A stretch of DNA of 64,000 nt from Candidatus Omnitrophota bacterium (GCA_015231405.1 JADGBR010000001.1:385762-449761), one strand, 5' to 3'. Counted from the stretch's first letter, positions 28,101 to 59,166 are shown. Notes: generated by a model not told the origin, from the letters alone. Numbers and translations: made by a program.

Positions 28101-31100
28101 CGCTCCCGGAAAAAAGGACAGAAAACTTATCGCCCCGAAGAACCTCCGGATAATAGCGTCGATGAGCGATGAGGCGGTACTGGAGGACGGAGCTTTCTAC
28201 GACAGGTTCCTCCGGAAAAAAGTCGCAGGAGCGAATGAAGATGACTTTAGAGCCTTGGCAAAAAAGGATCTTCCCGAAATAAAGGAAGATACCGTAAAGT
28301 TCCTGTTAAAATTCAGGGAAGAGCTGAATTCCGGGGTATCCGAATGTTCCCTTGCCGATCTGATGGGCATCGTTAAATATGCCGCGGAAGCGGCATCCGT
28401 AAATGGCGACAGTGTGGATCAGTTAGTTATCGCGGCCTATGAAACAGGGAAATATTTTGACGCTAAGGGCGTTTCAAAGGAGAAGAGGGCGGATCATGAT
28501 TCCGTCGTTATGACATCGTTCGCCGCGATGAATGATGACAGTTCATTGGCTCCGGGTGATGTGAGCGGAGTATTAGATCTTTTCTGGGATCCGGCGAGGC
28601 CCGGCTCGGGCCCTCCGACCTTCGCGTGGGGCGGTCCGGGAGGGCTGGACAGGGCGACGCTTATAAAGATCTTGCGTCATATAGCCGTCGTCGCGGGCGG
28701 CAAAAGCGAGATGACGATGGGGGAAATGTCCGGCGTATTTCAGGATGAGTTCGGCGCTCTTTTAAATACTGAAGTGGTGGATCGGTATAAAGGGAAATTC
28801 GGGGATAAACCGGTCGATGAGTTCGTGTCTCTCCTCGTATTTGCCGTTGATGGGAATGACAGAAGTGGCGTAATAGTAAATCTTCTCGAGCCGTTCGGTC
28901 CGGCCGCGGGTGGGGCGGGAACGGATATCGCCGAACTTATGAAAGTAAAGAACTCGGGCATGAGATATGACCGGGGCGAGAAAAAAATAATTTTTGATAT
29001 TTACGCTCCCGGACTTAAGATCAATAAAGATATTTCGGATAAGCTCGAGCGGTATATCTCGGACAGGGTTAAGCAAAAGGGTAAGGGGGGATTCTCCCCG
29101 GATGACGAAGATGGGGCTATCCGAGACTTTTTCATGGACGAGCTCGACTATTTCATCGGCACCGACGAAAAACGCATGCTTTCAGCGGTAGCGCGGTCGA
29201 TGGAATACGGTAACGGGGTCATAAGGATAGAAGGCGCGACCGGCGCCGGTAAAACTTATACGGCTGAGCTGCTCTCCCGCATCATGGATTTCGGCGATGA
29301 AGTGAGGTCGCGTTTCTATTCGGAGCCGGTCAATAAGGAGACCAAACTCGCGAGGTTCCTCGGCTATTTTCGCGCCGACAAGTTCGGCTATTACTCCATA
29401 GACCAGACGACCCCTTTCCTGGATATCTTAAAATATGGCGGCGTTGCCGCCGTATCCGAGATGAATACGTCCGTTAAGGACGAATACGCCAAACTCGCCT
29501 GGTGGTTCATCCAGTTCGCCCGCGGAGACAGGGAGATATTCCTGAACGAATATCCCAGGAAGGGCGAGAACGGCGCCATAAGCCCGTCGATAAAGAGACA
29601 CCCGAAGGCGCTCATCATAATCGACGTTAACCCCGAAGATTACGAGGGGAGGGGCAAATTCCCGCGCGAGCTTATCGAGAACACCCCGAGCGTTTATGTC
29701 GACGAGAAAATGAACGATCTGGAGCATATTAAAAAAGTGACGAGAGCGTTCCTGAAACATATAGACGACGGCGAAAAGAAAGACGCGCTCGTCGACTTCA
29801 TAGCAGGCGCGCATGTGAAGATCTTCGACAAGGTGAAAGAAGCGAACGAGAACGGGGACAGGTATCCGCCTTTGAGTTACAGGGAGCTCGCGAGGGTCAC
29901 GAAGAGCATACCCGCGGGGCTTGCCATGAATGAGTCCCTGGTCATGGCCGAAAAAGCGGTGAACAAATATTACATCAAGGCGTTCGTTTCGGAACAGATA
30001 AAAAGCGATCTGAAATTAGGTCTTCTATTGTGGTCGGCTACCGAGGAGAGGGACGAGATAATAAAAGATGTTCTGTTCGGCAACCCAGAGGGAAGGAGCC
30101 CGCCTGTCCTGGTCACATCTTCGTCTGATGAAAACCCGTTCGAGGATATCGATTCGGCGGTCAATATGTTCAAAGAAGAGAACCCCGATAAAGAACTTTA
30201 CCGTGAACGCGTGAGGGTAACCTGGTTCGATGACGAGTTCAAGCTTTTCGGCGGGTTCCTGCCGATATCCATCAGGGAAAAAGCCTCTGCAGCCGCGGAG
30301 AGGTTAAAGGTCCTCCTTGCCGACGCCGGGACGAGAGATAAGGCGAACGGTATATACAGGGAGCTTCAGGCGAAGAGCGCTCAGCCTGTCAACGACCTCC
30401 CCGAAGATATTTCCGGCCTCGGCGATAACTTCATCCTTTCTTTAAGCGAAGCTCTTGACGCGCTCCGGAGCGGGCGTGAATGGACCCAGGCGCTCAGGTA
30501 TGAGAACGGGATAATACCGAGGCTTATCGATGAGGCGGAGAGAGAGCGGAAAGCTAAAGGCAAAGACGCGAAAATATTCATTATCGAACTCGAGAATATC
30601 CACAGGATAAAACCTGGTCTCGCCGTCGCGTTCAACTCGATCCTGCAGGAAGGCTACTATTATGATCCCGCGAGCCATACGAGAAAACAGGTCCCCGCCA
30701 ACCTGAAGTTCGTCGCGACAAGCGTAAGCGAATCGCCCCTTCCGTTCTCCGTGGCTGAAGAATCGAGGTGGGTGAGGCTTAAACAGACCGAGAGGGTTTT
30801 TGACCCCCTGGACACGGGTTCCGCTTTTCAGGGGATCATACCGGCCATGATACGGGATGAGCGGAAAAAGAGAGTGGAGGCCGGCATGCCGGACGGCGGG
30901 GAAGATCCGTCTACGGACGACTTAAATAAAGTCACGCAGTCTGTGCTGGCATATCTTAGGCCATATTTCATAAATCACCTGACATCGAGCAAAGAAGCTA
31001 AGATATTTGTAGCGGATTTCATCAAGGAGCTTACCAGCATTCCCGATATGGTAAAACTCATACGTGATGACGACGAGGGCTTTTTAAGGCTGATCTCGCG

Positions 31101-34100
31101 TTCTTTCGCTTTATCGGCGGCGATGTCTTTCAGGGGACAGGGAGCGGGTGACTCCGTCAAAAAAACGTGCCGGGGCTATTTCGATACGACGCTCGCCGGA
31201 AAAGAGGCGCTCGAAAAAGACGACCTTCTCGAGGATATAGACGAACTGGTCCGGGTGGAAGCCGCTACGTTCCACGCTTTTAACTCGGACAGGATAGTCC
31301 TTTACGAAGGTCCGCCGGGCGGCGGTAAGACCGACATGGCCATAGACGTAGCGAGGCGTCTCGGCCTCAAGGATTACCTCTTCTCCTGTCACAATAGGGT
31401 ACACACTTCGGAGCTTCTCGGCACTTTCTCCCAGCGTTCTAACGGCGATTTTTATTATACAGGAGTACCCGACTCCGACGGCCATTATCCCGAAGCCGAT
31501 TTTCTCGAGGCGATGACCCATGGCGGCGTTTATATCTTTGACGAAGGCGCGATAGGGAAAAGGGCCCAGGAACTTTTAAGCGTCCTTTCGGTGCTGGCCC
31601 GCGGCGAAAAACTCTTCATGCTGAACGAGATACCTGGATATCCCCCGAAAGAGATCAATGTCCATAAGGATTTCCACATTATCATAACCATGAACCCTCC
31701 GGAGGAGACTGTAGGCCGCGAACCGCTCCCGTTAGAGGTTTACGACCAGGCCCGCAAGATCTGGATAAATAACGGCCTTACGCAAGACTCATACAGGCGG
31801 ATCATAAGGAAGTTCCTCGACCTCTCAGCCAGGGAATTCGGCATCACTCTCTCGTCCCTTTTCGGTTCGGATGAGCCAGGCGCTTCCGACGCTTTCGCGG
31901 ACGCGCTTACGGGGATACATAAGACGATAAATTCGCTTGTGGGTAAAAAGATAAGCCTGTCGGAGAACGTCAACCTCCACCTGGTCACCCTCCGGGACAT
32001 GAAGGCGATGGTGAAGGATATGGTGAGATACTCCGCAAAAGGGGCGAACAGAACTGAGGCTTTCAGGATAGCCGTGAGGAACGCGTATATCGACCAGTTC
32101 AACAGGCTCCGCGATAGGCCCGGCATAGCCGACGAGTTGGGCAAACTTTTTAGAGTGGATGCCATGACGGGTACCAGGGACGTCCTCGCGGCAAACGGGA
32201 TAAATATCGACGTTTTCCTGGCCGGTCTCATAGAACGCGAACTTGATAAACGATATCTTGATATAAATGAGTTGGGCGGCGATGAGAGTCCGGGGGCTAT
32301 CCTTAATGAGGCACCGCTTGTTGGCCCTATACCCGCTTTGGACCATCCTTTCGGCATAGACGGTAGTGATATCGCCGAGACTTATGAGGAGCCGGAACAA
32401 CTCCGTGCTCCCCAATGTTTCAGTTCCAATGAGTTCATGAAAACCCGTGTGGACTATACCGTCAAGGAAATGATAGTCTCGCCATTATCAGGTCCCGCAG
32501 GAAAAACGATACTTGGACTTGTGTGCGGATTATGGAACTATACGCTGGGCAGGTTGTTCGGAAGAATAATCCCTCTGGGGAGATCAAAATTCTCTTCCGG
32601 AAATTTTAGAGTCTCTACGGTTAAAAAGGTCAGGGGTGGCGCGGATGTTCAATACAATAGGCCAGAAAGCGGTGAATGGCAGCCATTAATGGCTAAAACT
32701 GACAGATCGTTAGATCAGTATTTGGGTAGGATCAGGGCGAGCGCCAATCCTTTCGTCCGTTACGAACTTCCCGGGAATAACCGTGGGGAGAGATGCGTCA
32801 CTTCTTTGAAAATAGGCGGCAGGGAGCATCTGGCCTTTATAGACGAGAATGAGCATAAGACCGTCAATATCGCGGACATGTCCCGGCCGGGGTTGACGAG
32901 TTCTATAGTATCTCTTTCGGCGGGTAGAAGCGACATCAGTTACATAAAAGCGATATATATAGGGAAGAAACAGTACCTCGCCGTGTGCCATGTCGGCGGG
33001 GAAATGGCACTTTGGGACCTATCCCGGAAAGGGAAGGAAAAGGTCATTTACTTAAATTTCGGGTGGGATGTGCAGGATATTGCCGGGATCGATCTTCATG
33101 GGCAAAACTGTATAGCCATTCTTCACGCGTATAAGCTTACGGGAAGGGTTCTCTCCGACGGATGTATAAGGGTCATAGATCTCGGGACGGGAGAGATCCG
33201 TTCAGTGGACCTTCCGAAAGGGTATTTCAGGGAAGGGAAGATCTTTTCCGAGAATGACTCCGGCAAAAACAAGCTTTTTGTCAACGGACGGACTAACGAG
33301 GTCTACATGTATGACCTTGATACAAAAAAACTCTCTATGGGGTTGACCGATAGAAAAACAATCGCGCCGGGCGACGTCTCAGTATTTGGTATGGGAAAGA
33401 CCTTTTCAGTTATGCCCGCCGAAATACCGGATACGAATGGGCGGGAGGGCGTGGCATTATTGGATTGGGATAGTTCGGTGCAATGGGTATATCCGCTGGA
33501 GCTTCCGCATAATAAGGTAAAGGTAATGGCAGAGGTACGTTCCGGAGAAAAGACATATCTTGTCATAGCAGCCGGTAAGGGGATAGTGTTATGGGACGTG
33601 ATGGGGAAAAGCTATAAGAGCGTTGAATATCCTTTTGACGGGCATATACAGCGCATAACAGCGCTCGGTGATACCGGATTATTCGCGGTCACGGATAATC
33701 ATGGAACGGTCCGTATCTGGGATATAGACATAGAACGGCATATAGCCGAAACGCGGGTAAAAGCGGAAGCCCTCGAGCGCGGTGAGATACCCGCCGGAAA
33801 TGACCTCCCGTACGGTTTAAAGAAAAGGGACCTTTACGGCCCGGAAAAATTTCTTGGCATTAAAGAGGAGGTAGAGACCGGGATCGCCCCTCGCGCTGAA
33901 AGCGGCGCGTCGTGTGTGTATAGTGGGATCCAGCTTAAAGCCGGGAAGAGCGAGAAGGTCAGATCTGGCGGCGACATAACCAAGTTCCGGGAAGCGTTAG
34001 TGTCGGATAGAGAAGCGCGTCTTTTTACGAGAGAACTCTCGAAAGAGGAAATTGTCGCGATACCATCCGCAAATATCGTTGATATTGATAAAGATGCGAG

Positions 34101-37100
34101 TTGGGGACCCGGAGTTCTCGATATGGATAATATTTTTGTAGAGTTAGGGGCGACCCGCGGGGAGTCGCTGTTTTTCCGTGTCGAAAAACTGTCGGATCAG
34201 CTCGAACGTAATGACATACATGAAATACGCGAACTTAGGATGGCATTGGACGATAAACAGGAAAAAGTTGCCAGCGGTGTCATAGACGTGGCCGGTTTGA
34301 GCTGCCTCCTGACAACCGATATAAAGGGCGTGATATCGCTCTGGGACTTAAAGAACGACAATGTGGTCAGGTTAAAAGTGTGTGACAACCTGGTCGATAA
34401 ACTCGTGGTGATGAAGAACCGAGAGGGCGACGTGGAACTTGTAGTGCCAGGCGACAATAATCAGCTGCTGTTCCTCAGATTCGCCGGGGGCTCCGGTGGG
34501 ATCATACCAGCCGGAATGAGGCGAGTTAATACTACCGCCGATATAAGCGGCCTCGACGTTATACGTGACGATAAAGAGAGGGACTGTCTCGTTTTTGCCG
34601 GTACTGAGAAACTGATTGCGGAGCCGGGACAGATCAGCTACGGTCTGGACAGATACCCGACGCTCAAGGTTCTCAGCTTTACAGGCGAGACGAGCGGATA
34701 TATTACGGAAATAAAAGCTCATCCTGAAGCGCCTGGGGTACTGAACGTCGTCAAGGACGATATGGGGCTGGGCCGGCTGGTCTCGGGCGAGAAATTCAAC
34801 ATGAAATTATGGGGTTTTGCCTGGAAAGACGGGCGCATTGAGGGGGGAAGTGTCTCTAAATTCCAGGTAGAGGGCCTTGCAATGGAAAACGGAACGTTGA
34901 TAAAAGACGATATTGGAAGATCCCACCTGGTTTTGCCGGTCAAATACGAGAACGGTAGAAGGCTCATCATGCTGGACTTCGATTTTAAGAACGGCGTCCT
35001 GAAAGGAGGGATATCGAGGACCGTTGACCTGAAGCTTAAGGATATCAGCGGCGTCACGGCCATAAGCGATCTTGACGGAGACGATCGAGTAGTCGTATCA
35101 TGCGATAATTCCGTTATAAAAATGATCGGTTTCGACTGGGATAACGGTGAGATCAAGGGGGCGAATAGTATCACTTTCGAGAACCCTGATTCCGGCGGCG
35201 ACATATACGGCGTTCACACTTTTAGAGCGGAAGATGGCACCGAATACCTGGTCGCGAGGCGTTCCGGAGGCCGCCTGGACTTATGGGACCCCTTCATCGC
35301 CGACAAACTCGCCGAAGCCCGCGATCTTTACGATTCAGGGGAACGGTCACAAGCCGCTGACACCACGCCCCCCCTGTCCGCCGAAGCCTTGGCGAAGGCG
35401 AATGCCCCAAGCCCCATGCCTGCGATCCCCCACGGCTTTACCCGCGAGCAGCTCTTACAGGAACAGGACTGGCACGGCGAGAAAGTCGTGCTTTTGAAAG
35501 GCGATATAGTTAAAGGTATTCCCATGGAAGATATCAGAAAAGGCGATAAATACGGATGGTACGGTGAGAGTTACGAGAAGGACCCGACAGTGACCGGCGA
35601 GGTGATTCACCTGACGAATGGGCCGGCGGACGGATTATCTATAATGACGAAAACAGGCAAGATGGTAAAGGGAAAAGAGAGAAAATTCAAAAAGCTTGGA
35701 ACGCCTGAAAAAGGGAACACACTGGGCTGGTCCATGACCCGGAAAATACATGAAGGGGAACTTGGGACCGGTAAATTCGAAAGGAAGGACGAGGAGTTCT
35801 TCAGGCTGATGAACCGTGATGATCAAGGGGATGAAACCCGCCGGCACATTGATGCCGGCAACGCCTATATTATGACCGGGGAAATAATGGATGAGATCGA
35901 CCATGGGGACCCGCGGAAGGTATCCGATATGGCGGAAAAGATAAAACATGACAGCGAGGTGAACGAGATCAAGGTCTTTAAATGCAGAGGCCGTGAGATC
36001 ATCGTGACGACCTGTTTGACTAATTTTATACGGATATGGGATATTGAAAAGAATAAGGTTACCACGATACTCGGGCATAACAACGTGATATTTGGTCTTG
36101 AGCTATTGGAACGGAGTGACAAAGTATATCTCGTTACAGGTTCCTCGGATAACATGATAAAGTTCTGGGCTCTTAACGCGGTTGGCGAAGTCGATCGGGA
36201 TCATGTTACCACACTTCACGGTCATAGTGATTCAATAAACGATATTCGCGTGATCGAACGGGAAGACGGGGTATATCTGGTGAGCGCGAGCGAGGATAAG
36301 ACCGTGAAATTCTGGAAGTTAAAAGGTGCCGGCGGCATCGAATTTTCTGAAGTCACGGCGCTCAAAGGGCATAGCGGTCAAGTGACAAAACTTGAATTCT
36401 TTGCCCGCGACAAGAAGCTGTATATGGCAAGCGGGGACAGAGTCGGCGCGGTCAAGATCTGGGCTTTCAGGGGGAAGAGCGGCGCGGATATGGAGAGCGT
36501 GACGACGCTGCCTGAAATGAAAATGGACGTGAGCGATCTCAGGATATTGGAATGCGCGGGTAAAATGTATCTGGCTGCCGGAGAAGGTAATGGAAATATA
36601 AAATTATGGGGTTTTGCCGGGGATGCGGGCGTCAATATCAGCGGCGTTACTACAGTAAGGGTATGCAACAATGGTTTTGGCGTCATGAGCTCCGGCGGCA
36701 GGACCTGGCTTGTCACCGGCGGCTCCGACGCCGTAGTGAAACTCTTGGAGATCAGCGGAAAGGAAGGCGAGGATGTGGTCAAGGGCATGACCGTGCTTAA
36801 GGGACATGGCAGTTACGTGACAGGCGTATATGTATTCGAACGCGAAGGTAAACAGTATCTGGCGACCGGCAGCGAGGATAAAACCTTCATTGTCTGGGAC
36901 CCCTTCCGCGAAGAAAAATTCCACGAAGCCCGGGCCGTTGTCGAAGCGTGGGAACGCTCGCATGCCTCGGACCCCATGCTCCAAGCTCCAAGCTCCATTC
37001 CCGAAGCCCCAAGCCCCATGCCCGACATCCCCCACGGCTTCACCCGGGAACAGCTTCTTTTGGAACAGGAATGGCATAGCGAGGAGGCCGTTCTTGTGAA

Positions 37101-40100
37101 TGGAGATGTGTCTTTCGACGAGGTGAAGGACGGAAAACACGGCTGGTTTAGGGAAGGGCGCGAGAACTTTCCGTCCGAATGGCAAGAGGTCGAACCTATT
37201 ATGCCGGACAGGGAAAGAGGAGAGAGCCTGGATGAAGCCGAGAATAGATTTTATGATGTACAGGCTCCAAGGGGGAACACGCTCGGCTGGTCCTTTAAAA
37301 GGGGGATAAAGGGGGGTGAGAGCGTTACAGGAACCGTTCAAATGAAAGCTAAAGGATACTTTGATTCAACGAACTGGGCCAGCCCCGCTCTCGACGTTGG
37401 CGAGTACTTGGCAAGTGGCAACGCTTACGCGATGAGGGAAGGGATGGAACCGTATTTTGACAGATACGATTCGCATAAAATGTCCGATATGGTGGAAAAG
37501 ATAACGTTAGGTCTGGCAAATACGGATCTGGTTCATATTTCGTTCGATTGGAATGGACGGCAATATATCGTTTCCGGCGGGGATGCGGGCATAAAGATAT
37601 GGGACATCTCGAGGGGAAAGGTAATGACGCTCAAAGGGCATGCGGGCAAAGTCACGAGTTTGCAGCTCATCGAGCGAAAAGGTAAAAAATACATCGCGAG
37701 CGGCGGCGATGACAATGATCGGACCATCAAACTCTGGGGGTTGGAGGATGGAGAAGAGTTGGGCATAGGTTTTGTGACAACGATCAGAGGGCATTCGGCC
37801 GGGATAATTAGTTTACGGGTGATAGGCGATAAATATCTTGTAAGTGGAAGTAATGATCTAACGGTAAAGCTCTGGGAGTTCGAGGGTGATGATGAGTTGG
37901 GCATAAACACTGTGACAACGCTGAAAGGTCATAGTGATTGGGTTAGAAGCCTGGAAGTGATCGGGACCCCCAAGGGGATATTATTCGCGAGCGGGGACAT
38001 GAACGGTAAGATAAAACTTTGGTCATTGACCGAGAGCGGGGAAGTGATCGCAGGGAACGTATTAACTATCAAAGCCCATGGCGGTTGTGTCCAGGCATTG
38101 AAGCTCATGAGATATGGTGAAAAGACGTATCTGGTCAGCGGAAGTTGGGACAAAAGCGTGAAGATCTGGGAACTGGGAGAGAAAGACAATGTGGATATAG
38201 CGGGAGTTACTGTCCTTAAAGGATTTAAGAATAATGTGCTGAGCCTCGAAGCCATTAGGCGCGGTGATAGGACATATCTGGCGACCGGAGGGGAGGAGGA
38301 CGGAATGGTAAAACTCTGGTCTCTATCAGGCGAAGCGGAGCTCAGTGTGGATGGAGTGACTATTCTTAAGGCGCATACCAAATGGGTCTCGAGTATACAG
38401 GTCATAGTACGTGACGGTAAGGAGTATCTTACCACCGGAAGCGGGGACGATACGCTTATTACCTGGGATCCTTTCCGCAAACAAAAATTCCACGAAGCCC
38501 TGGCCTACCTCGATGCTTGGGAAAGAAAGGTCGAAGGTCCCTCCTTCGTTAAGGCTTCGGAGGGCGGGCGAGGGTCGTCGGTCGAAGGGCCAATGCCCAA
38601 TGCTCCAAGCCCCCTGCCTGACCGGCAGGTAGGCATGCCCGAAGCCGGCCTTGGCGGCGGCGCCGACGACTCCAACGGCCCAGCTTTCAATGCCGTCGAC
38701 CCCGGGATGGACCTTCCCGAGGACAGGGACATAACAGAGGCCAGGTATAAGCTCAGGTCGCGGGGAAGAGCCATGCTCATATGCGAACCTGGTACGCGTG
38801 AACGCGTTATAGTCGACGAAGTGGCGCGGCTCGAAAAATTCAAATATGTTTATAAGCTAGAAGGGCGGCCGTCGCTCGCGCCGGAAGACCTTATAGGCTC
38901 GAAATACCCGGTCCTTGAGGAGGAGAAACGGGAAACGAACGAAGAATTCGTTTTCAAAAAGGGCTTCCTTACCCGGCATATGTTAACGGAGGAAGAACAC
39001 GCTAAATACCTGGAAGAAAAGTCCGCAGGGAAGGATTTCCCGAAAAAACTGCTAGTTATTTACAATATAGACGCTATCGGCGAGAAAGCCAGGGCGTCCC
39101 TCAACAATCTCTTATTGAACGGTTATCTGAACATTCCTTCGGTGGGCAAGCTCTGGTTGCCCGACAATGTCGAGATAATAGCGACGATGAGGGTCGGTTC
39201 ACAGCAGGAATTCTCGAGCGCCTTTCCGAACAGGATGACCAAAGGGAATATGTCCCCGATGGAAGCCAAGGGCTGGGGGGCTTCGGATTTCGCGAAATAT
39301 TGCCGGAATGTGTATGGGTTCGATAAATACGTTCTCGGGAAGGATGATAAAGGCAGACCTTACGATATAGCCGACGAAATTGAGCTTCTTTATGACAATA
39401 TCAGGAGCCAGGAGGTTACGGATCGCGTCTGGCCGTCGAGGATGACTTACGGTTTCACCGTCAAGGACGCTTTAACCCACGCCGAGTTCACTGCGCTCGC
39501 GATAGCGGAAAGAAAAAAGATGGGGCTTGGTGAGCCGGGGAAGGACGAGTTAATGAATATCCTGGTCGACGAGGCTATGAGGGTTTACGGGTTCAAGGTG
39601 CGGCAGTTCCCATCGGATTACGATTCGTTCGTCGATTCCATACTTAAGATGCAGTTTAGCCATAAATACGTGGAAAGGGCCGTTATCCGGGACGACGTGA
39701 AGATATCCGCCGGTAAGCTCAGGGAACTCTCTGGGATACCCATCTCGCCGGGTCACGGCGCTCTAGGAATGACGCTCATTGAGCGTAATTACCGGCTGAC
39801 GCTCGTCGGCAGCATGGTGGGAACTATGTCGGCGATGATAAGGGGACTTGCCGCCGGTAAAGTGGTATCGTTCACCGGGGATACCGGGGCCGCGAAGACG
39901 ACCATGGCGGTCGCGCTCGCGCGTATGACGGGCGTAAAGGATTATGTCTTCAGTATGCATAAGGACGTGAAGGAATACGATCTCACCGGAGCCGTCAGGA
40001 TGACCGATAAGGGCCGTTTTACTTTCGAGATAATGGAGTTCGCTAAACAGCTCGAAGAGGGTAACACCATGCTCATAGTCGATGAGGCCAATATCAAACC

Positions 40101-43100
40101 CGAGATACTCTGGCTCCTTTCCGGCATAGCCCGCGGCGAAAAACAGTTCACTATAGAAAGGCCCGGGGATAAGCCCCATACCTTTAATATAGGAGAGAAC
40201 GTGTACGTAGTATTCACCATGAACCCCGAAGCCTACGGAGGCGGGCGCGGGGCGATACCGATACCGCTCAAGGAGGATATATTTAATATTTGGGTGCCGG
40301 ACTATTACGAGTATCCGGAGATGGCGCGTATAGTCACGGAATTTTTCGGCGGCATGCCGGAGCTCGCCAATATTACTGAGATGACCCCGGCCGAAACCTC
40401 CAAGGCCTCGACCCTTGAATTGGACAACAGGTTTTTCGAGATAAAACGCCTCTTTAGCCATCTTTACGCCAGGATGGAAGTCGAGGACGTAGTCAACGCC
40501 ATATATGATAAAGGGTATGAATTTACAATAGGCACGTTATACGGCCTGACTAAGGATAATGACCCGGCAAAGGCCAGGGAGAAATACTATGAGCTGAAAC
40601 GGGTAGAGGAAGAAATAATGTACGATCCGAAGGTGCGGGGAAAGATGTTACGTATTAGGACAAAGGTCGCGCTAATGGAGAAATATCTCAGGGACAAAGG
40701 CATGACCGTCAGCGTGAATTTCAGTCTATTTACGTGGTGGAGTCAGGGTGTGCGTGAAAAGAACGGCAAAAAAGAAATAATAGTGAATGTCCCGCTATAT
40801 GAGCTTGTCGACAAGAAAGACCATCCAAATATCAGGAAAGAAGGCAAGTCCGACAAGGTCATCGCCGGGCTTATCATACACGAACTAAGGCACTATTTGT
40901 ACAGCCCTAAAGACAATCTCGAATGGCGCGATATCGGTGTTGATATCGGGATAAACAGTTTTGCCCCGGAGATAAGAGAGGTGTTTGACACGTTCACGGC
41001 AGATCCGAAGGATAGGACGGTTAAGCGCCGGAGGGATGTCTTTCAGCTTTGGAACGCTCTGGAGGATGTTCGTATAGATCTTATGGAAAGGGATTCGGAG
41101 CATTTCCGGAGGCTTAAGGGCGCGCAGGAGAACGTCGACGAGATGATAAAGGATATGTTCAAGGATGAGACGAATGACCCGGGAGAGTTCGAGAAGAGAA
41201 AGAAAAAGGCCGTACGCGCCGCCTGGCTCCATCCTCATGCAATGCTGAGGGACGTATTATTCCGCTACGGTTATACGGGGGAATTCGGACCATATTTCGG
41301 GTTTTTTGACGAAGAACTGAAAAAGGCCGTACAGGAATTGACCGGTGCTATGATAGAGGCGACTCAGTCGTCCAAAGCGCGAATGAACATGAGCGATGTC
41401 AGCTCAGCTGGGGATTTTCTTAAAGAAAGGCGGCGCGCGTCAGGGGAAAGCGTTAAAGTGATACTCGAAAAGATATTGCCGAAATATCTTGAGCTCGCCG
41501 AAGAGTCGAAGAAAAGGGTTGATGAGGAAAAAAAGAAAAAACAGGGAGGCCCGAAAGGAACGGAAGTTGAAGAAGGAGACGGGAGTGAAGGCGGAGGGGA
41601 TCCCGGCGAGGGAGGAGAATCCGGGGAAGGAGGAGCGGAAGGTCTAGGTTCGGGTGGAAAACAGGAATTCTTGTTCATGCCGCCTGAACTCATGGAAGAG
41701 ATGTACGGAAGCGGCGATGAAAATAGCGGGGACGAGGGCCAATCCGGAGGGAAAGGAAATACCGGGCCCATGATAATAAGCCCGGGAGCGAAGAACGGTG
41801 TGAGAAAACCAGGTGACGGCCTCCCTGAGGATATGACCCCCCACGGAGGATCCGCCGGTACCCCGGGGGACGATGGCGGCAAACAAAACGCCGGAGGAAA
41901 AGACGACTCTCCGGACGACACGGAGGGCGATGACAATGACGGCCCCGATACCGAGGGCATGTCAAAAGCTAACCGCAGCCGAGCGATCAAGGAAGCTTCT
42001 TCCAAGATCAACAAAGAGCGGCTCAAGGGTGAGCCTATCAATCAAAGGCTCTCCGAGGTCGGAGGCCAGGCTAAACAGCTCGCGGAAGGTCTGATCAATA
42101 TATTCAATGTGCCGGAAGAAACCGAGGTGGAAGAGTCCGCTTACGGCAGGATCATTAACATGATAAGGATCATCATGAAGAGCATGACCCCTTTCGACGA
42201 GGAAGTCGATACGGGTAACCGCCCGGATCTCGCGCTTGGAATGACGGCCGATCTTTCCGGAAGCATGAAGGATTTCTTCCCGGCGATAAAGAAACTGAGC
42301 GCCATTTTTATCAGCTCGTTCCAGCGGATAGGTAAAAAAGCCGATTTCTCGGTGACTTTGGACGGGCCCGACGAGAACGGCGTCGACCATCCCCACAATG
42401 TCATAGATTTCGGAGAGAAACACGCACAGGACGAGCTCAACGGCGTACAGAACAGGGTGGAAAAGACCATGGCGAGGGAAGGCGGCGGAGGGATACACGC
42501 TTACAGCTGTCTTGAAGCGATAGTAGAAAAACACAAACGGTCAAAACAGAAAAATAAACTTGAGGTCATATTCACGGACGCTATGGACACCGAAGGAATG
42601 GAGTCCGAGAGGGAAGAAAAATTCCGGGAAGCCGAAAAACTGGGTGTTTCCATTTTGGTCGTGGGTTTCAGGAACCAGCAGAACAAAATGCAGGAAGTGT
42701 TCGGCAAGCACGCTTCGTATATCCTGGTCGACAGGGATAAACCCGAAGCGATAATAGGGGTCGTCCTTAACGCCGCCAAGATAAAGGCCAGGACCGGCAA
42801 GATACCTAAGGGGAATATCGGCCCGATGTTCGACCAGAAAGAGGGCGGAATGCTTGTTCGTAATGCTATGGACCTTATAACGAACGACGACCTCAGCGTA
42901 AGGATGAAAACGGAGAGCGAGATAAACGCCATGCGGTCGCTCGCCGATGTTCGGAGAACGGCGCTATACGAGGCGCGGATGACCGTCAGACAATTCAGCG
43001 TCCGCGACAGGCTTGAAAAGCTTATTGCCCGGTCCCGTGACGCTATAAGCGACCTCTGGAGGAATAACGGCAAGGATATAGTCGTTATGCCCGACCTTCT

Positions 43101-43686
43101 CTCGGACCCGTCCGTCGGCCGTATAGCCAGGGGCGCGAAAGACTTCGATAAAAAATTCGAGCAGACCACCGTCCCTCTTTTGTACAAATACGCCGACGGC
43201 GGCGCGAAAACCGAAGATATGAAGAAGCCACTTACCAGGGTTTTCCTGGAAGCGATAGGGGAGTTCGGTAAAGGCGGAGGAAGGAACGGCATACTCGTTT
43301 ATTTCCCCGGGGCCCTCAAGGATACCGGCCTCCTGGCAGAAGTAATGTCGGATGACCGAATAGCTCCTTTCAAGGACCACATAACCGTCATATACGGCGA
43401 TTATACACCTGGCGACCGCATGGACATAGTTTCGCATATCATCCTAGCCAAAGCCCTTCTTAACTACAATAGATACAAAAAAGGGATATACGGCAAAGAA
43501 ATGGACCCCGACGCGATAATGCGCCTTCTCGAATACCTCAAACTCTTAGTCGACGACAAAAAAGAGATAACAGAATCATTCATTACCGCTCTCCGTAACG
43601 GCGCCATCCTAAAGATCCGCAAACTGGACGTCAACGACATAGCCGCCCAGGAATCCCTCCAAACCGCCTTCTGGAAATCCGTCTAA
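25198..43686 (+). CDS. Giant 6162-aa secreted midasin-like protein: signal peptide, shared N-terminal twin-GX2H domain, three MoxR-type AAA+ modules, tandem WD40 propellers, HExxH motif, acidic G/E/D-rich tract, C-terminal vWA/MIDAS
   Basis: Uninterrupted 18,489-nt ORF. Signal peptide MKFKNFVKITAILVTVSFLQQSTFGYAQ. GIIHIQDAHC (25414-25443) and TGGFH (26641-26655). Walker A: GATGAGKT (29233-29256), GPPGGGKT (31309-31332), GDTGAAKT (39877-39900). Walker B: VSEMN (module 1, Asp replaced by Ser), IFDEG (31540-31545), IVDEAN (40081-40086). HELRH (40879-40893). Acidic low-complexity tract EEGDGSEGGGDPGEGGESGEGG...DDTEGDDNDGPDTEG (41560-41960). MIDAS DLSGS (42250-42264) with downstream IFTDAMD. Confidence 0.92.
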   Translation: MKFKNFVKITAILVTVSFLQQSTFGYAQFEYGDSTITKTDLGGNVEEKSVSFVPSSLATIKRSYTGDDKNAPGIIHIQDAHCVYPCQERINTILEHLEKDRGIKRIFLEGGSGRYDLTVFRQIADRELRREVSEVFMKEGVINAAEYFAANSDREIELIGVEDPALYMRNLGVFRETNKSIADETGLLEKFKVLMKKIASGVFSEDLAVFYSFYEGHKTDKIGLAEYIMYLSKVTGAAPGMRSPDAGNIAKIMKISAMEKAVDFRKAEKERTDMLDHLFRTLPNSIKERLLTEMVAYKKGERLDLEFNEYLAGVFGNTGESAGVRHEELDKYIEYLREWSGVDSFKLMEEIPLMENEIKKRFAANAGERTLVDIWDRVEQTEKILGFKLVSDEYVRIKTDTFKYTFGGILEDMRKAFAVDFSEDIEDLVAELGKADRDNRLIKNVLGFYEYSFERDGVFIEEINNAGRQGNGAGDGVSVFMTGGFHTGNICSLLEKNGMSYVSVIPKFDNEEGSSERYFGILAGKREGLVGGITAAMSNLQVPTLLDQALGAEVWGKGGIGRMEAAVYVQTLVSKGYRVEIYDDVTGETLFSYGKGGKLIRCARTNFPREVHERFIAETEGDAGKAGIAGEEVADDANVNAENVGKVLKERVYLRDEELEALVSGVIDYHSKFNELLEGVRKAASDPARFKISIREIKRFSDDFKRIFLALVASGYERTDSLTTAIGYASRNIYMDMLDEKSPEYQAMARLMADTDILSIPGIVKGNGDNLFDRTYAKVARAIDSGIPALFIKDKDALGALERAIKKYSQKPGVKVVNMECTPASDSAQLIGGFMPKGRVDVAEAYKRVGMAISGKAALSIIEILAELLDKKKEEVTEKERKDFTEIYDEGKGDEGLIIAAAMVLEDPKSWRNKLVYEKGLLARIIDKCKEDKDTTYIFNIENIEALPGRIRAQLNAFLLTGELRVPGAPGKKDRKLIAPKNLRIIASMSDEAVLEDGAFYDRFLRKKVAGANEDDFRALAKKDLPEIKEDTVKFLLKFREELNSGVSECSLADLMGIVKYAAEAASVNGDSVDQLVIAAYETGKYFDAKGVSKEKRADHDSVVMTSFAAMNDDSSLAPGDVSGVLDLFWDPARPGSGPPTFAWGGPGGLDRATLIKILRHIAVVAGGKSEMTMGEMSGVFQDEFGALLNTEVVDRYKGKFGDKPVDEFVSLLVFAVDGNDRSGVIVNLLEPFGPAAGGAGTDIAELMKVKNSGMRYDRGEKKIIFDIYAPGLKINKDISDKLERYISDRVKQKGKGGFSPDDEDGAIRDFFMDELDYFIGTDEKRMLSAVARSMEYGNGVIRIEGATGAGKTYTAELLSRIMDFGDEVRSRFYSEPVNKETKLARFLGYFRADKFGYYSIDQTTPFLDILKYGGVAAVSEMNTSVKDEYAKLAWWFIQFARGDREIFLNEYPRKGENGAISPSIKRHPKALIIIDVNPEDYEGRGKFPRELIENTPSVYVDEKMNDLEHIKKVTRAFLKHIDDGEKKDALVDFIAGAHVKIFDKVKEANENGDRYPPLSYRELARVTKSIPAGLAMNESLVMAEKAVNKYYIKAFVSEQIKSDLKLGLLLWSATEERDEIIKDVLFGNPEGRSPPVLVTSSSDENPFEDIDSAVNMFKEENPDKELYRERVRVTWFDDEFKLFGGFLPISIREKASAAAERLKVLLADAGTRDKANGIYRELQAKSAQPVNDLPEDISGLGDNFILSLSEALDALRSGREWTQALRYENGIIPRLIDEAERERKAKGKDAKIFIIELENIHRIKPGLAVAFNSILQEGYYYDPASHTRKQVPANLKFVATSVSESPLPFSVAEESRWVRLKQTERVFDPLDTGSAFQGIIPAMIRDERKKRVEAGMPDGGEDPSTDDLNKVTQSVLAYLRPYFINHLTSSKEAKIFVADFIKELTSIPDMVKLIRDDDEGFLRLISRSFALSAAMSFRGQGAGDSVKKTCRGYFDTTLAGKEALEKDDLLEDIDELVRVEAATFHAFNSDRIVLYEGPPGGGKTDMAIDVARRLGLKDYLFSCHNRVHTSELLGTFSQRSNGDFYYTGVPDSDGHYPEADFLEAMTHGGVYIFDEGAIGKRAQELLSVLSVLARGEKLFMLNEIPGYPPKEINVHKDFHIIITMNPPEETVGREPLPLEVYDQARKIWINNGLTQDSYRRIIRKFLDLSAREFGITLSSLFGSDEPGASDAFADALTGIHKTINSLVGKKISLSENVNLHLVTLRDMKAMVKDMVRYSAKGANRTEAFRIAVRNAYIDQFNRLRDRPGIADELGKLFRVDAMTGTRDVLAANGINIDVFLAGLIERELDKRYLDINELGGDESPGAILNEAPLVGPIPALDHPFGIDGSDIAETYEEPEQLRAPQCFSSNEFMKTRVDYTVKEMIVSPLSGPAGKTILGLVCGLWNYTLGRLFGRIIPLGRSKFSSGNFRVSTVKKVRGGADVQYNRPESGEWQPLMAKTDRSLDQYLGRIRASANPFVRYELPGNNRGERCVTSLKIGGREHLAFIDENEHKTVNIADMSRPGLTSSIVSLSAGRSDISYIKAIYIGKKQYLAVCHVGGEMALWDLSRKGKEKVIYLNFGWDVQDIAGIDLHGQNCIAILHAYKLTGRVLSDGCIRVIDLGTGEIRSVDLPKGYFREGKIFSENDSGKNKLFVNGRTNEVYMYDLDTKKLSMGLTDRKTIAPGDVSVFGMGKTFSVMPAEIPDTNGREGVALLDWDSSVQWVYPLELPHNKVKVMAEVRSGEKTYLVIAAGKGIVLWDVMGKSYKSVEYPFDGHIQRITALGDTGLFAVTDNHGTVRIWDIDIERHIAETRVKAEALERGEIPAGNDLPYGLKKRDLYGPEKFLGIKEEVETGIAPRAESGASCVYSGIQLKAGKSEKVRSGGDITKFREALVSDREARLFTRELSKEEIVAIPSANIVDIDKDASWGPGVLDMDNIFVELGATRGESLFFRVEKLSDQLERNDIHEIRELRMALDDKQEKVASGVIDVAGLSCLLTTDIKGVISLWDLKNDNVVRLKVCDNLVDKLVVMKNREGDVELVVPGDNNQLLFLRFAGGSGGIIPAGMRRVNTTADISGLDVIRDDKERDCLVFAGTEKLIAEPGQISYGLDRYPTLKVLSFTGETSGYITEIKAHPEAPGVLNVVKDDMGLGRLVSGEKFNMKLWGFAWKDGRIEGGSVSKFQVEGLAMENGTLIKDDIGRSHLVLPVKYENGRRLIMLDFDFKNGVLKGGISRTVDLKLKDISGVTAISDLDGDDRVVVSCDNSVIKMIGFDWDNGEIKGANSITFENPDSGGDIYGVHTFRAEDGTEYLVARRSGGRLDLWDPFIADKLAEARDLYDSGERSQAADTTPPLSAEALAKANAPSPMPAIPHGFTREQLLQEQDWHGEKVVLLKGDIVKGIPMEDIRKGDKYGWYGESYEKDPTVTGEVIHLTNGPADGLSIMTKTGKMVKGKERKFKKLGTPEKGNTLGWSMTRKIHEGELGTGKFERKDEEFFRLMNRDDQGDETRRHIDAGNAYIMTGEIMDEIDHGDPRKVSDMAEKIKHDSEVNEIKVFKCRGREIIVTTCLTNFIRIWDIEKNKVTTILGHNNVIFGLELLERSDKVYLVTGSSDNMIKFWALNAVGEVDRDHVTTLHGHSDSINDIRVIEREDGVYLVSASEDKTVKFWKLKGAGGIEFSEVTALKGHSGQVTKLEFFARDKKLYMASGDRVGAVKIWAFRGKSGADMESVTTLPEMKMDVSDLRILECAGKMYLAAGEGNGNIKLWGFAGDAGVNISGVTTVRVCNNGFGVMSSGGRTWLVTGGSDAVVKLLEISGKEGEDVVKGMTVLKGHGSYVTGVYVFEREGKQYLATGSEDKTFIVWDPFREEKFHEARAVVEAWERSHASDPMLQAPSSIPEAPSPMPDIPHGFTREQLLLEQEWHSEEAVLVNGDVSFDEVKDGKHGWFREGRENFPSEWQEVEPIMPDRERGESLDEAENRFYDVQAPRGNTLGWSFKRGIKGGESVTGTVQMKAKGYFDSTNWASPALDVGEYLASGNAYAMREGMEPYFDRYDSHKMSDMVEKITLGLANTDLVHISFDWNGRQYIVSGGDAGIKIWDISRGKVMTLKGHAGKVTSLQLIERKGKKYIASGGDDNDRTIKLWGLEDGEELGIGFVTTIRGHSAGIISLRVIGDKYLVSGSNDLTVKLWEFEGDDELGINTVTTLKGHSDWVRSLEVIGTPKGILFASGDMNGKIKLWSLTESGEVIAGNVLTIKAHGGCVQALKLMRYGEKTYLVSGSWDKSVKIWELGEKDNVDIAGVTVLKGFKNNVLSLEAIRRGDRTYLATGGEEDGMVKLWSLSGEAELSVDGVTILKAHTKWVSSIQVIVRDGKEYLTTGSGDDTLITWDPFRKQKFHEALAYLDAWERKVEGPSFVKASEGGRGSSVEGPMPNAPSPLPDRQVGMPEAGLGGGADDSNGPAFNAVDPGMDLPEDRDITEARYKLRSRGRAMLICEPGTRERVIVDEVARLEKFKYVYKLEGRPSLAPEDLIGSKYPVLEEEKRETNEEFVFKKGFLTRHMLTEEEHAKYLEEKSAGKDFPKKLLVIYNIDAIGEKARASLNNLLLNGYLNIPSVGKLWLPDNVEIIATMRVGSQQEFSSAFPNRMTKGNMSPMEAKGWGASDFAKYCRNVYGFDKYVLGKDDKGRPYDIADEIELLYDNIRSQEVTDRVWPSRMTYGFTVKDALTHAEFTALAIAERKKMGLGEPGKDELMNILVDEAMRVYGFKVRQFPSDYDSFVDSILKMQFSHKYVERAVIRDDVKISAGKLRELSGIPISPGHGALGMTLIERNYRLTLVGSMVGTMSAMIRGLAAGKVVSFTGDTGAAKTTMAVALARMTGVKDYVFSMHKDVKEYDLTGAVRMTDKGRFTFEIMEFAKQLEEGNTMLIVDEANIKPEILWLLSGIARGEKQFTIERPGDKPHTFNIGENVYVVFTMNPEAYGGGRGAIPIPLKEDIFNIWVPDYYEYPEMARIVTEFFGGMPELANITEMTPAETSKASTLELDNRFFEIKRLFSHLYARMEVEDVVNAIYDKGYEFTIGTLYGLTKDNDPAKAREKYYELKRVEEEIMYDPKVRGKMLRIRTKVALMEKYLRDKGMTVSVNFSLFTWWSQGVREKNGKKEIIVNVPLYELVDKKDHPNIRKEGKSDKVIAGLIIHELRHYLYSPKDNLEWRDIGVDIGINSFAPEIREVFDTFTADPKDRTVKRRRDVFQLWNALEDVRIDLMERDSEHFRRLKGAQENVDEMIKDMFKDETNDPGEFEKRKKKAVRAAWLHPHAMLRDVLFRYGYTGEFGPYFGFFDEELKKAVQELTGAMIEATQSSKARMNMSDVSSAGDFLKERRRASGESVKVILEKILPKYLELAEESKKRVDEEKKKKQGGPKGTEVEEGDGSEGGGDPGEGGESGEGGAEGLGSGGKQEFLFMPPELMEEMYGSGDENSGDEGQSGGKGNTGPMIISPGAKNGVRKPGDGLPEDMTPHGGSAGTPGDDGGKQNAGGKDDSPDDTEGDDNDGPDTEGMSKANRSRAIKEASSKINKERLKGEPINQRLSEVGGQAKQLAEGLINIFNVPEETEVEESAYGRIINMIRIIMKSMTPFDEEVDTGNRPDLALGMTADLSGSMKDFFPAIKKLSAIFISSFQRIGKKADFSVTLDGPDENGVDHPHNVIDFGEKHAQDELNGVQNRVEKTMAREGGGGIHAYSCLEAIVEKHKRSKQKNKLEVIFTDAMDTEGMESEREEKFREAEKLGVSILVVGFRNQQNKMQEVFGKHASYILVDRDKPEAIIGVVLNAAKIKARTGKIPKGNIGPMFDQKEGGMLVRNAMDLITNDDLSVRMKTESEINAMRSLADVRRTALYEARMTVRQFSVRDRLEKLIARSRDAISDLWRNNGKDIVVMPDLLSDPSVGRIARGAKDFDKKFEQTTVPLLYKYADGGAKTEDMKKPLTRVFLEAIGEFGKGGGRNGILVYFPGALKDTGLLAEVMSDDRIAPFKDHITVIYGDYTPGDRMDIVSHIILAKALLNYNRYKKGIYGKEMDPDAIMRLLEYLKLLVDDKKEITESFITALRNGAILKIRKLDVNDIAAQESLQTAFWKSV
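25400..26740 (+). other. Shared N-terminal domain (copy 1 of 3 in window) with twin GX2H motifs; hypothesised Tiki/TraB/GumN/EreA-like
   Basis: The motifs GIIHIQDAHC...EGGSGRYDLTVF and VFMTGGFHTGN...YVSVIPKF are conserved in the N-termini of the 6162-, 2263- and 1992-aa proteins. Confidence 0.55.
32750..33750 (+). other. Degenerate WD40-like beta-propeller region (module A) in giant protein 2
   Basis: Weak WD-like blades: LAVCHVGGEMALWDLS, IVLWDVMGKS, TVRIWDIDIERH. Much less regular than modules B and C. Confidence 0.4.
35950..36910 (+). other. 7-bladed WD40 beta-propeller (module B) in giant protein 2
   Basis: Blades end in IRIWDIEKNKV, IKFWALNAVGE, VKFWKLKGAGG, VKIWAFRGKSG, IKLWGFAGDAG, VKLLEISGKEG and FIVWDPFREE. 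LKGH/LHGH motifs precede each blade. Confidence 0.8.
37530..38480 (+). other. 7-bladed WD40 beta-propeller (module C) in giant protein 2
   Basis: Blades end in IKIWDISRGKV, IKLWGLEDGEE, VKLWEFEGDDE, IKLWSLTESGE, VKIWELGEKDN, VKLWSLSGEAE and LITWDPFRKQ. Classic GH...WD spacing. Confidence 0.85.
42230..42720 (+). other. C-terminal vWA/MIDAS domain of giant protein 2, immediately preceded by an acidic G/E/D-rich tract (41560-41960)
   Basis: LALGMTADLSGSMKD (DxSxS), then LEVIFTDAMDTEG and VSILVVGF beta-strands. An acidic tract followed by a MIDAS domain mirrors eukaryotic midasin/Rea1. Confidence 0.7.
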
Positions 43687-58335: not shown

Positions 58336-59166
58336 TTACTTTTGTTGAAGGACAAGTGAATTGTTTTCGGGGTCGATCTTGATGTGAAAATCCCTTAAAA
58401 AAGACATTCCGAGAAGACCGTCATGGTCAGTGTTCGAGGAAGTCTTTTCGATCATAATGGCGGCTTTGACATTTTGAGAGGAAACGTTCCCTACCTTGAT
58501 CGACACTAATTGGATCGGGAGGCATTGGGCCGTGCTTTTGTCAGCGAGTTGTATCGAGATAGGCTTTTCACCTTTTGTGTCCATATGAAGCTTTTCGGCT
58601 ATATAAGGCGAAATAACGACGATGCTGGCTCCGGTGTCAAGTAAAAGTCTTGCCTCTACCCTGTTGTTAATAAGGGCGGTCACGATTATTCTCGAGCGGT
58701 CAGTGTACCTGATAGTGGTAGAGGACCTATGCGCGGCCTCAAGATCGAAGAACCGCTTAAAATATTCGTTCTCGGTCACTTTACGTAACGCGGATTTTTC
58801 CTTACTGTTATCGGTGCTGTAAAATTTCCAGTCACTGATCAAGGCTTCTTTTTGGCGCGAATCTGACGGGGTAATGATTTCAACGATATCTTCTTTTGAA
58901 ATGGATGTTTTGCCGTAACCCAGGTCCAGGATCATTCCCGTATCTTTTTCTTCTTCAATGACGCCGAATATCTTCCCTCCGCTTTTAAGTTTTACTATAA
59001 CGACGTTCAGATCTTCCATGAGGGAAATTTTCTTATCCGTAAGGCTGTCGACTTTTTTCGAATAGAAATAATCATTTAAGAACGTCAATATCGGGGCTTT
59101 GAATTCTATAAAGACCAAAAGAGACAGGATAGTAAGTAGCAAAAATAATCTTAAGAATTTAACCAT
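58336..59166 (-). CDS. Membrane-anchored retropepsin-like (clan AA) aspartic protease
   Basis: 276-aa ORF with N-terminal TM anchor MVKFLRLFLLLTILSLLVFIEF. Active-site motif LLLDTGAS (DTGA at ~58627-58638), followed by ...IVVISPYIAEKL and DGLLGMSFL, typical of pfam13650/13975-type bacterial retropepsins. Located immediately upstream of, and co-directional with, the 2263-aa gene. Confidence 0.75.
   Translation of the reverse strand: MVKFLRLFLLLTILSLLVFIEFKAPILTFLNDYFYSKKVDSLTDKKISLMEDLNVVIVKLKSGGKIFGVIEEEKDTGMILDLGYGKTSISKEDIVEIITPSDSRQKEALISDWKFYSTDNSKEKSALRKVTENEYFKRFFDLEAAHRSSTTIRYTDRSRIIVTALINNRVEARLLLDTGASIVVISPYIAEKLHMDTKGEKPISIQLADKSTAQCLPIQLVSIKVGNVSSQNVKAAIMIEKTSSNTDHDGLLGMSFLRDFHIKIDPENNSLVLQQK

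Follow-up and report, generated by a model that had tools for sequence, protein, structure and literature searches.

Here we examine a 64,000-nucleotide (nt) stretch of DNA, one strand, from Candidatus Omnitrophota bacterium (GCA_015231405.1, JADGBR010000001.1:385762-449761), called the window throughout, and within it a very large gene, giant gene 2, whose product carries an array of WD40 propeller modules between its AAA+ ATPase modules. Two neighbouring modules of this array, U1 and U2, are identified by sequence comparison as true intragenic tandem duplicates whose likeness goes beyond that of WD40 repeats in general, and their divergence, to ~40% amino-acid identity with synonymous sites saturated, marks the duplication of the whole module as ancient. 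We place at about 70% the probability of the overall reading, in which an ancient module duplication sits within a three-module array with constrained junction elements, in a midasin-like host protein for which the array would act as a protein-binding platform.

An original prediction, drawn from the DNA alone, had described three consecutive units with near-identical junctions and seven blades each, and had attributed them to recent segmental duplication or gene conversion inside the giant gene. Much of this description holds at the level of architecture, and its dating does not.

U1 and U2 are collinear copies of one module

Residues 3373-3905 (U1) and 3910-4428 (U2) of the giant gene 2 protein align over 542 amino acids (aa) as a single collinear match with 37.6% identity (E value 8e-101). 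Nucleotide self-comparison of the same region pairs 35284-35505 with 36895-37107 (70% over 224 nt), 36840-36954 with 38409-38523 (76% over 115 nt), 35404-35505 with 37006-37107 (79% over 102 nt, spaced by 1,602 nt) and 35284-35371 with 36895-36982 (70% over 88 nt, spaced by 1,611 nt). Off-diagonal likeness is found at both the nucleotide and the protein level.

This similarity exceeds generic WD40 likeness because the two propellers are closer to each other than to outsiders and because an orphan, non-WD40 part of the module is collinear as well. Compared on their own, the propellers of U1 and U2 score 190 bits at 39% identity, against 82 bits and 29% for the best outside WD40 protein retrieved from a large protein database, and equivalent blades are on average 39% identical, against 27.5% for non-equivalent blades. 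The remaining ~230 residues, a linker and a small region, have no Pfam match even at E <= 10, and a profile built from them detects two complete copies in the window plus a partial one of 50 residues, with no further match in any of the frames. Within the body, the motifs GNTLGWS, GNAY(I/A)M and SDM(A/V)EKI that had been pointed out earlier are present in both units.

The unit upstream, U0, resembles U1 and U2 only marginally in sequence (E 1e-4). Three consecutive units are therefore borne out as an architecture, since the structural model of U0 has the same layout, whereas a conserved body is confined to U1 and U2. Similarly, the claim of seven blades per unit agrees with the blade profile and with a 28-strand model, and its signature of a GH-WD pair in each blade is seen in part: the GH dipeptide occurs in four of the seven repeats of U1 and three of the seven of U2, about half of the blades, and most repeats end in W-D or W-x.

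The duplication is ancient

Across 519 aligned codons, U1 and U2 share 40% of amino acids, 53% of nucleotides and 35% of third positions, where 26% would be expected by chance from composition. The synonymous divergence (dS) calculated by the Nei-Gojobori method (NG86) is saturated and not computable in the small region, in the propeller and in all 458 codons outside the junction, and of the 162 identical degenerate residues outside the junction, 66 share their codon, compared to 58 expected from codon usage. With dS saturated and the sharing of codons close to expectation, the duplication is old.

The same conclusion comes from a relative. An exhaustive profile search with the linker and small region among 1.84 billion (1.84e9) representative proteins returned the giant gene 2 protein itself, one further protein, P0002, and two spurious low-complexity matches (P0003 and P0004); a non-WD40 part that a profile detects in just two proteins among so many is unusual. 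P0002 (MBF0216582.1, Candidatus Omnitrophica bacterium) is 3,139 aa long and cut at its N-terminus by a contig end, and it probably stems from the same genome submission as the giant gene 2 protein, the two accession numbers being 861 apart. Profile scans of genome and metagenome contig collections found no relative, the source genome itself being absent from both. All comparisons with P0002 were made at the protein level.

P0002 carries the same J0-J3 array, with junctions starting at residues 131, 637, 1128 and 1468, followed by the ATPase modules D5 and D6 and a VWA domain. Because the same three-module array is found in both, the array predates the split of the two genes. The proteins are 65% identical in D5-D6 and 27-42% in the propeller modules, which makes the array the fast-evolving part of the protein, and U0 is orthologous by position between them (neighbour-joining bootstrap 0.99-1.0).

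The segmental duplication proposed originally is thus well founded (37.6% identity over 542 aa), but it is not recent, given 53% nucleotide identity, saturated dS and an array already present in P0002. As a route of length expansion it also stands, as the collinear copies U1 and U2 lengthened the open reading frame (ORF). According to a 2026 preprint, most repeats in long Omnitrophota proteins are old duplications that no longer show as tandems at the nucleotide level (10.64898/2026.06.07.730766), and propellers have been described as evolving within genes through amplification followed by diversification (Pereira and Lupas 2022, cited in 10.1101/2023.11.21.568195).

Architecture of the array

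The array spans ~2,100 aa with three to four propellers; of the six AAA+ modules, four precede it and two follow. Its units are U0 (aa ~2864-3362), U1 (aa 3363-3899) and U2 (aa 3900-4422), and faint sequence matches suggest that a fourth, still more diverged propeller (A) probably precedes U0. The features are listed below with the evidence for each; HMM denotes hidden Markov model and pLDDT the predicted local distance difference test score.

32635..33717 (+), probable, strongly diverged propeller A (aa ~2480-2840); faint WD40-type Pfam and blade-HMM matches; aligns with the N-terminal part of P0002
33718..33786 (+), cap helix after propeller A (WDIDIERHIAETRVKAEALERGE); degenerate WDPF helix, helical at residues 12-27 of the U0 model
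33805..33852 (+), N-terminal motif of U0 (LPYGLKKRDLYGPEKF); degenerate counterpart of IPHGFTREQLL.EQ.WH in a six-module alignment
34240..35283 (+), propeller B, body of the diverged U0; AlphaFold2 model and Foldseek
35284..35346 (+), junction 1a, cap helix of propeller B (WDPFIADKLAEARDLYDSGER); IADKL version, at the same position in P0002
35347..35424 (+), junction 1b, Pro/Ala/Ser-rich linker ending in APSPMPA; predicted disordered, pLDDT <50 at model residues 29-50
35425..35475 (+), junction 1c, N-terminal motif of U1 (IPHGFTREQLLQEQDWH); sequence alignment
35479..35964 (+), U1 small region; GNTLGWS at 35713-35733, GNAYIM at 35857-35874, SDMAEKI at 35923-35943
35965..36894 (+), U1 propeller C, seven-bladed WD40; Pfam WD40 170.9 bits, seven blade-HMM matches, AlphaFold2 and Foldseek
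36895..36957 (+), junction 2a, cap helix of propeller C (WDPFREEKFHEARAVVEAWER); sequence and model
36958..37026 (+), junction 2b, Pro-rich linker; contains a cryptic 21-nt (7-codon) tandem repeat, 36972-37025, 2.6 copies
37027..37077 (+), junction 2c, N-terminal motif of U2 (IPHGFTREQLLLEQEWH); sequence alignment
37081..37527 (+), U2 small region; GNTLGWSF, GNAYAM, SDMVEKI
37528..38463 (+), U2 propeller D, seven-bladed WD40; Pfam and blade HMM
38464..38526 (+), junction 3a, cap helix of propeller D (WDPFRKQKFHEALAYLDAWER); sequence and profile
38527..38622 (+), junction 3b, linker ending in APSPLPD; no IPHGF motif follows and the chain continues into D5

Translation places the three junctions exactly where they had been predicted: 35275-35470 (aa 3360-3425, LWDPFIADKLAEARDLYDSGER...NAPSPMPAIPHGFTREQLLQEQDWH), 36890-37080 (aa 3898-3961, VWDPFREEKFHEARAVVEAWER...EAPSPMPDIPHGFTREQLLLEQEWH) and 38455-38620 (aa 4420-4475, TWDPFRKQKFHEALAYLDAWER...NAPSPLPD). 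The third is indeed the shorter copy that had been described, keeping the cap helix and APSPLPD and lacking the IPHGF motif. Junctions 1 and 2 are 1,602-1,611 nt apart and junctions 2 and 3 ~1,570 nt. Their nucleotide identity had been put at ~85%, which is somewhat too high: 35401-35470 and 37003-37072 agree at ~80%, and the junction stretches overall at 79-80%.

A cap helix of the form WDPF...K..EA......WER stands behind each propeller, even the final one, which has no module downstream of it. Each small region is headed by a motif [LI]P[HY]GF..E.L..E..W, which neither giant gene 2 nor P0002 has after its final propeller. Between helix and motif lies a Pro-rich linker of variable length (23-32 aa in giant gene 2, up to ~37 in P0002). 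Sequence and models together define the true module as the motif, a partly disordered small region of ~160 aa, seven blades and the cap helix, so a junction joins one module's end to the next one's start through a flexible linker, and is not a duplication scar. An apparent mosaic, in which the IADKL version of the helix sits at equivalent positions in the two proteins, is resolved once this helix is assigned to the upstream unit, U0. In this arrangement, flexible Pro-rich linkers string the modules together like beads.

Predicted structure of the modules

The sequence of U1, with its flanking junctions (610 aa, alignment of 6 sequences), was modelled with AlphaFold2 at a mean pLDDT of 71.6. 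Confidence is high (pLDDT 80-90) for the cap helices and for a propeller of 28 strands, in agreement with the seven blade-HMM matches found in each of U1 and U2 and with Pfam, which assigns PF00400 (170.9 bits over six stretches, cut-off 27) and Beta-prop_WDR3_1st (222 bits, cut-off 154). The first ~65 residues of the U1 small region are predicted to be disordered and the last ~90 ordered (pLDDT 74-89). A ubiquitin-like fold was considered for this region and rejected, the predicted order being four short strands and then two helices, which is not a beta-grasp.

The model of U0 (mean pLDDT 67.8) has the same order of elements as that of U1, and its beta region (residues 182-530) reaches pLDDT 75-89 except in a low-confidence loop at 307-318. 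Foldseek searches against the PDB match both models to WD40 propellers with probability 1.0. The best matches of both, dynein-bound Lis1, WDR12, G-beta and EED, are all seven-bladed WD40 propellers, but identity to these Lis1-type and other propellers is only 10-25% and the ranking is unspecific, hence no functional link follows from it.

Conservation of the junctions

Whereas dS is saturated elsewhere, it is finite in the 61 junction codons (0.69, with a nonsynonymous divergence, dN, of 0.35 that falls to 0.19 in the motif). Along APSPMPxIPHGFT, 9 of the 11 degenerate sites with identical residues share their codon, against 3.9 expected (P ~0.002, uncorrected and for a window picked after seeing the data). 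The 26-residue motif agrees at 22 of 26 positions between junctions 1 and 2 of giant gene 2, and at 16/26 and 9/26 when these junctions are compared to the same positions in P0002. These three figures make gene conversion, as originally suggested, plausible at the junction only.

The same junction could be more alike simply through purifying selection on its two structural or functional elements, combined with codon bias and with no conversion at all, a reading to which we give somewhat less than an even chance. In its favour, when the modules of the two proteins are compared, the most conserved residues lie in the junction (with D, P, F, K, A, R, E, R, P, F, E, L, E and W invariant), dN is lowest there, and the excess of shared codons concerns only 11-19 sites in a window chosen post hoc. 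It sits less well with the finite dS and the shared codons, and uniform constraint does not predict a motif more alike within the gene than across genes. Nor does RNA structure account for the nucleotide conservation: z-scores range from -0.9 to +0.2, by which a structured RNA was rejected as the cause, and the junction region has no match in Rfam. Antisense ORFs at 34719-35204, 36604-37341 and 37929-38480 were also considered; they have no Pfam match and were taken as shadows of a gene rich in GC at third codon positions (GC3).

To us, selection alone and a short conversion tract in the junction are roughly equally likely. Such a tract, if any, may extend over up to ~220 nt and have homogenised the junction later than the rest of the module.

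Timing and possible length variation within the array

The finite dS of the junction, the motif identities and the grouping of modules in trees form the pattern expected of conversion or of a later re-duplication. The U1/U2 pair might be younger than the array, though still old, if U2 was re-duplicated, or overwrote U1 by whole-module conversion, after the genes had split. In neighbour-joining trees of six modules, U1 and U2 of giant gene 2 group together with bootstraps of 0.66-0.99, and the two U1 modules with at most 0.19; likewise, U1 of giant gene 2 is 37% identical to its neighbour U2 and 35% to U2 of P0002, and only 27% to U1 of P0002. However, U1 of P0002 looks degenerate, with a ~35-aa deletion in the small region and few GH/WD signatures, and is equidistant from all modules (27-29%), as in long-branch attraction. 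By raw identity, U2 of giant gene 2 is closest to U2 of P0002 (42-54%), and the tree has only six sequences. Whole-module replacement of U1 by U2 is possible, though less likely than not.

A recent duplication of the whole ~1.6-kb module is very unlikely. The regular spacing of the junctions and their nucleotide identity are what such an event would leave, but it is ruled out by the third-position data and by the saturation of dS at 458 of the 519 codons, and it is at odds with the nucleotide divergence of the copies and with the array in so diverged a relative. We give next to no credence to the view that there was no duplication, only blades that are alike everywhere or a segment repeated by a metagenome assembly prone to mishandling repeats, as it is ruled out by a collinear match across an orphan region unique to this module family and by propellers whose mutual likeness is far above that to any outside WD40 protein, and copies differing at 47% of nucleotides cannot come from an assembler repeat.

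The preferred reading remains an old duplication, and smaller elements of the array may also vary in number. For the strain-level length polymorphism predicted originally there is a hint in the third module of P0002, which has 340 aa and three blades, against 523 aa and seven blades in giant gene 2, and two of its adjacent blades (residues ~1345-1470) share an exact 17-aa stretch, SLTVLEEGGVKYLASGS; by its sequence, this module could reflect a recent blade-level event or a collapse in metagenome assembly. The corresponding blades 2 and 3 of U2 in giant gene 2 are also unusually alike (37714-37794 versus 37852-37932, 81 nt, 74% identity). Together with the P0002 module and the 21-nt linker repeat, they hint at changes in blade and linker number, and the repeat in the junction 2 linker is a plausible source of linker-length variation. 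A linker sequence, AWER.VEGPSF.KASEGGR.S.VE, follows propeller B in P0002 (residues 655-690) and propeller D in giant gene 2 (38518-38590, aa ~4441-4465), and would thus seem to have shifted from one junction to another, unless it was lost at the other positions.

The host protein

Giant gene 2 is one uninterrupted ORF and corresponds by exact sequence match to a GenBank protein from a metagenome-assembled genome, encoded on a 490,973-bp contig. It encodes six AAA-like modules, D1-D6, recognized by Pfam and by internal similarity; the ORF and the two modules that flank the array are as follows.

25198..43686 (+), giant gene 2 ORF, 6,162 aa, uninterrupted; GenBank MBF0215721.1, 'AAA family ATPase', Candidatus Omnitrophica/Omnitrophota
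31165..32247 (+), AAA+ module D4, the final ATPase module upstream of the array; Walker A GPPGGGKT at 31309-31332; AAA_5 E 4.4e-9; similar to D6 (E 6e-25)
38695..39477 (+), AAA-like module D5, the first ATPase module downstream of the array; degenerate, without Walker A; AAA_5 E 0.025; similar to D1 (E 0.012); matches aa 3034-3131 of giant gene 1, a further large gene in the window

P-loops are present only in D2 (GATGAGKT), D4 (GPPGGGKT) and D6 (GDTGAAKT), which are mutually similar (D2-D4 5e-9, D2-D6 3e-8 and D4-D6 6e-25), and D1, D3 and D5 are degenerate and likewise similar to one another (D1-D3 4e-8, D1-D5 0.012). Pfam AAA_5 is significant at D4 and D6 and weak at D5, and D2 is recognized by its P-loop only. 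NCBIfam gives a single match on the protein, to GvpN (MoxR-type) at D4, far below threshold.

C-terminal to D6 come ~360 aa with an HExxH motif, an acidic Gly-rich stretch (aa ~5440-5600) and a VWA domain (Pfam E 5.8e-4, 20.6 bits), in which DLSGS (aa 5685-5689) forms an intact DxSxS MIDAS motif. The HExxH motif (GLIIHELRHYLYSP, at 40879-40893, aa 5228-5232) lies between D6 and the acidic stretch and is conserved in P0002 (GLIIHELRHMLYSP); it may be a metallopeptidase-like site, and aa 5030-5480 have no match in Pfam. At the other end of the protein, the N-terminus (25198-25285, aa 1-28, MKFKNFVKITAILVTVSFLQQSTFGYAQ) resembles a Sec signal peptide or membrane anchor. The gene also stands out in composition (GC 51.3%, GC3 60%, against 44-47% and 47-52% in neighbouring large genes), which could reflect a foreign origin or different selection.

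Giant gene 1 (776..16144, + strand, 5,122 aa) is distantly paralogous to giant gene 2, the two sharing blocks that are 22-31% identical. Its AAA_5-type modules and C-terminal VWA domain (DISGS) come in the same order, and it lacks WD40 repeats; hydrophobic segments occur at its N-terminus and at aa ~4801-4827. As giant gene 1 has only ~110 aa at the site where giant gene 2 has ~2,200, the propeller array is an insertion between D4 and D5.

Comparison with known systems

Six AAA-like modules, apparently of the MoxR/dynein clade, a low-complexity acidic stretch and, at the C-terminus, a VWA-type domain bearing DxSxS, all in one chain, recall midasin (Rea1/MDN1), whose domain layout is taken from PMC11603028. 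There are nevertheless several differences. A phmmer search of all PDB chains finds only NorQ, a MoxR-type ATPase (E 3.6e-4), and no Rea1 or Mdn1; the ring of Rea1 is followed by a ~1,700-aa linker, compared to only ~360 aa between D6 and the acidic stretch here; and giant gene 2 has P-loops in D2, D4 and D6 only, a ~2,100-aa propeller array between D4 and D5, and a bacterial host. Judged by its sequence, the protein is midasin-like in layout, and we do not count it as a midasin.

The nearest prokaryotic association described is that of the MoxR-vWA beta-propeller ternary systems of PVC-group and other bacteria (PMC7159879; Kaur, Burroughs, Iyer and Aravind 2020), which likewise bring together a MoxR-clade AAA+ ATPase, a vWA domain and beta-propellers. 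There, however, these are separate proteins with a propeller of ~4 blades after the vWA (PMC7159879), whereas giant gene 2 is one polypeptide with seven-bladed propellers ~1,200 aa upstream of its VWA domain, between AAA modules. PADLOC reports nothing meaningful on the protein, only low-quality matches to mad8 (18.9 bits, in a P-loop stretch) and HEAT-ARM_XIII (in the WD40 region).

Repeated WD40 or propeller units in a very long protein are shared with the tandem-repeat scaffold giants of Omnitrophota (10.64898/2026.06.07.730766). Unlike there, the unit here is a whole ~530-aa module, with an orphan N-terminal region, a seven-bladed propeller and a cap helix, and not a blade or Pfam repeat; the protein has 6.2 thousand residues, not at least 10 thousand, and is an ATPase and not a pure repeat scaffold.

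Proposed function and significance

The mechanism that we propose begins with a whole-module tandem duplication, presumably by unequal intragenic recombination, that would have given rise to U1 and U2, now the best-preserved members of an array U0-U1-U2 with a probable extra propeller ahead. Selection would then have kept the junction, its cap helix and N-terminal motif being the most constrained elements outside the propellers, possibly with the help of a short conversion tract. From its fold and position, we suggest that the array projects from the ATPase ring as a flexible, multivalent protein-binding platform, holding partners or substrates for remodelling by the ring and the MIDAS domain.

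Several observations weigh against this picture. The neighbour-joining trees favour U1 with U2 over U1 with its counterpart in P0002; the family has only two members, so constraint and conversion are not cleanly separable; the AAA-like label of D1, D3 and D5 comes mainly from weak internal similarity; the VWA match scores below the Pfam gathering score of 23.8; and an N-terminus like that of a secreted or anchored protein is awkward for an ATP-dependent machine.

The combination has a possible eukaryotic parallel. The Rea1 substrates Ytm1 and Rsa4 are small-domain plus WD40-propeller proteins, and Rea1 pulls them via a conserved acidic residue held by its MIDAS domain. By analogy, the modules of giant gene 2 could be built-in counterparts of midasin clients, or of a dynein regulator, fused in cis between D4 and D5, with the MIDAS domain docking on the invariant acidic [LI]P[HY]GF..E.L..E..W motifs at the module starts and junction-limited conversion keeping these sites uniform. 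We consider this improbable; were it true, docking might serve autoinhibition or a mechanical cycle, and the protein would unite, in a prokaryote, analogues of Rea1 and its substrates in a single molecule.

The duplication itself is routine, giant Omnitrophota genes growing by the copying of whole modules that diverge until likeness remains at the protein level only. What is unusual, besides the orphan part, is the place of the array, within the ring of a bacterial protein that is midasin-like, has six AAA modules and bears a MIDAS motif, an architecture of which we found no description. If the array does serve as a platform for substrates or partners, the protein would offer a tractable bacterial model for how concatenated AAA+ rings are coupled to client-binding modules.

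Genomic neighbourhood

Large genes are clustered in this part of the genome, with three further very large ones around the two giants, at 18743-23263 (+), 45257-51235 (-) and 51441-58232 (-). Products among these large genes include one of 1,506 aa with BACON_2 and HYDIN/VesB-like Ig domains, one of 1,992 aa with no Pfam match and one of 2,263 aa with FHA domains. Beyond them, a retropepsin-like aspartyl protease (Asp_protease_2, 58336-59166, -) adjoins a GH5 cellulase-family protein with DUF5060 (59314-61524, +).

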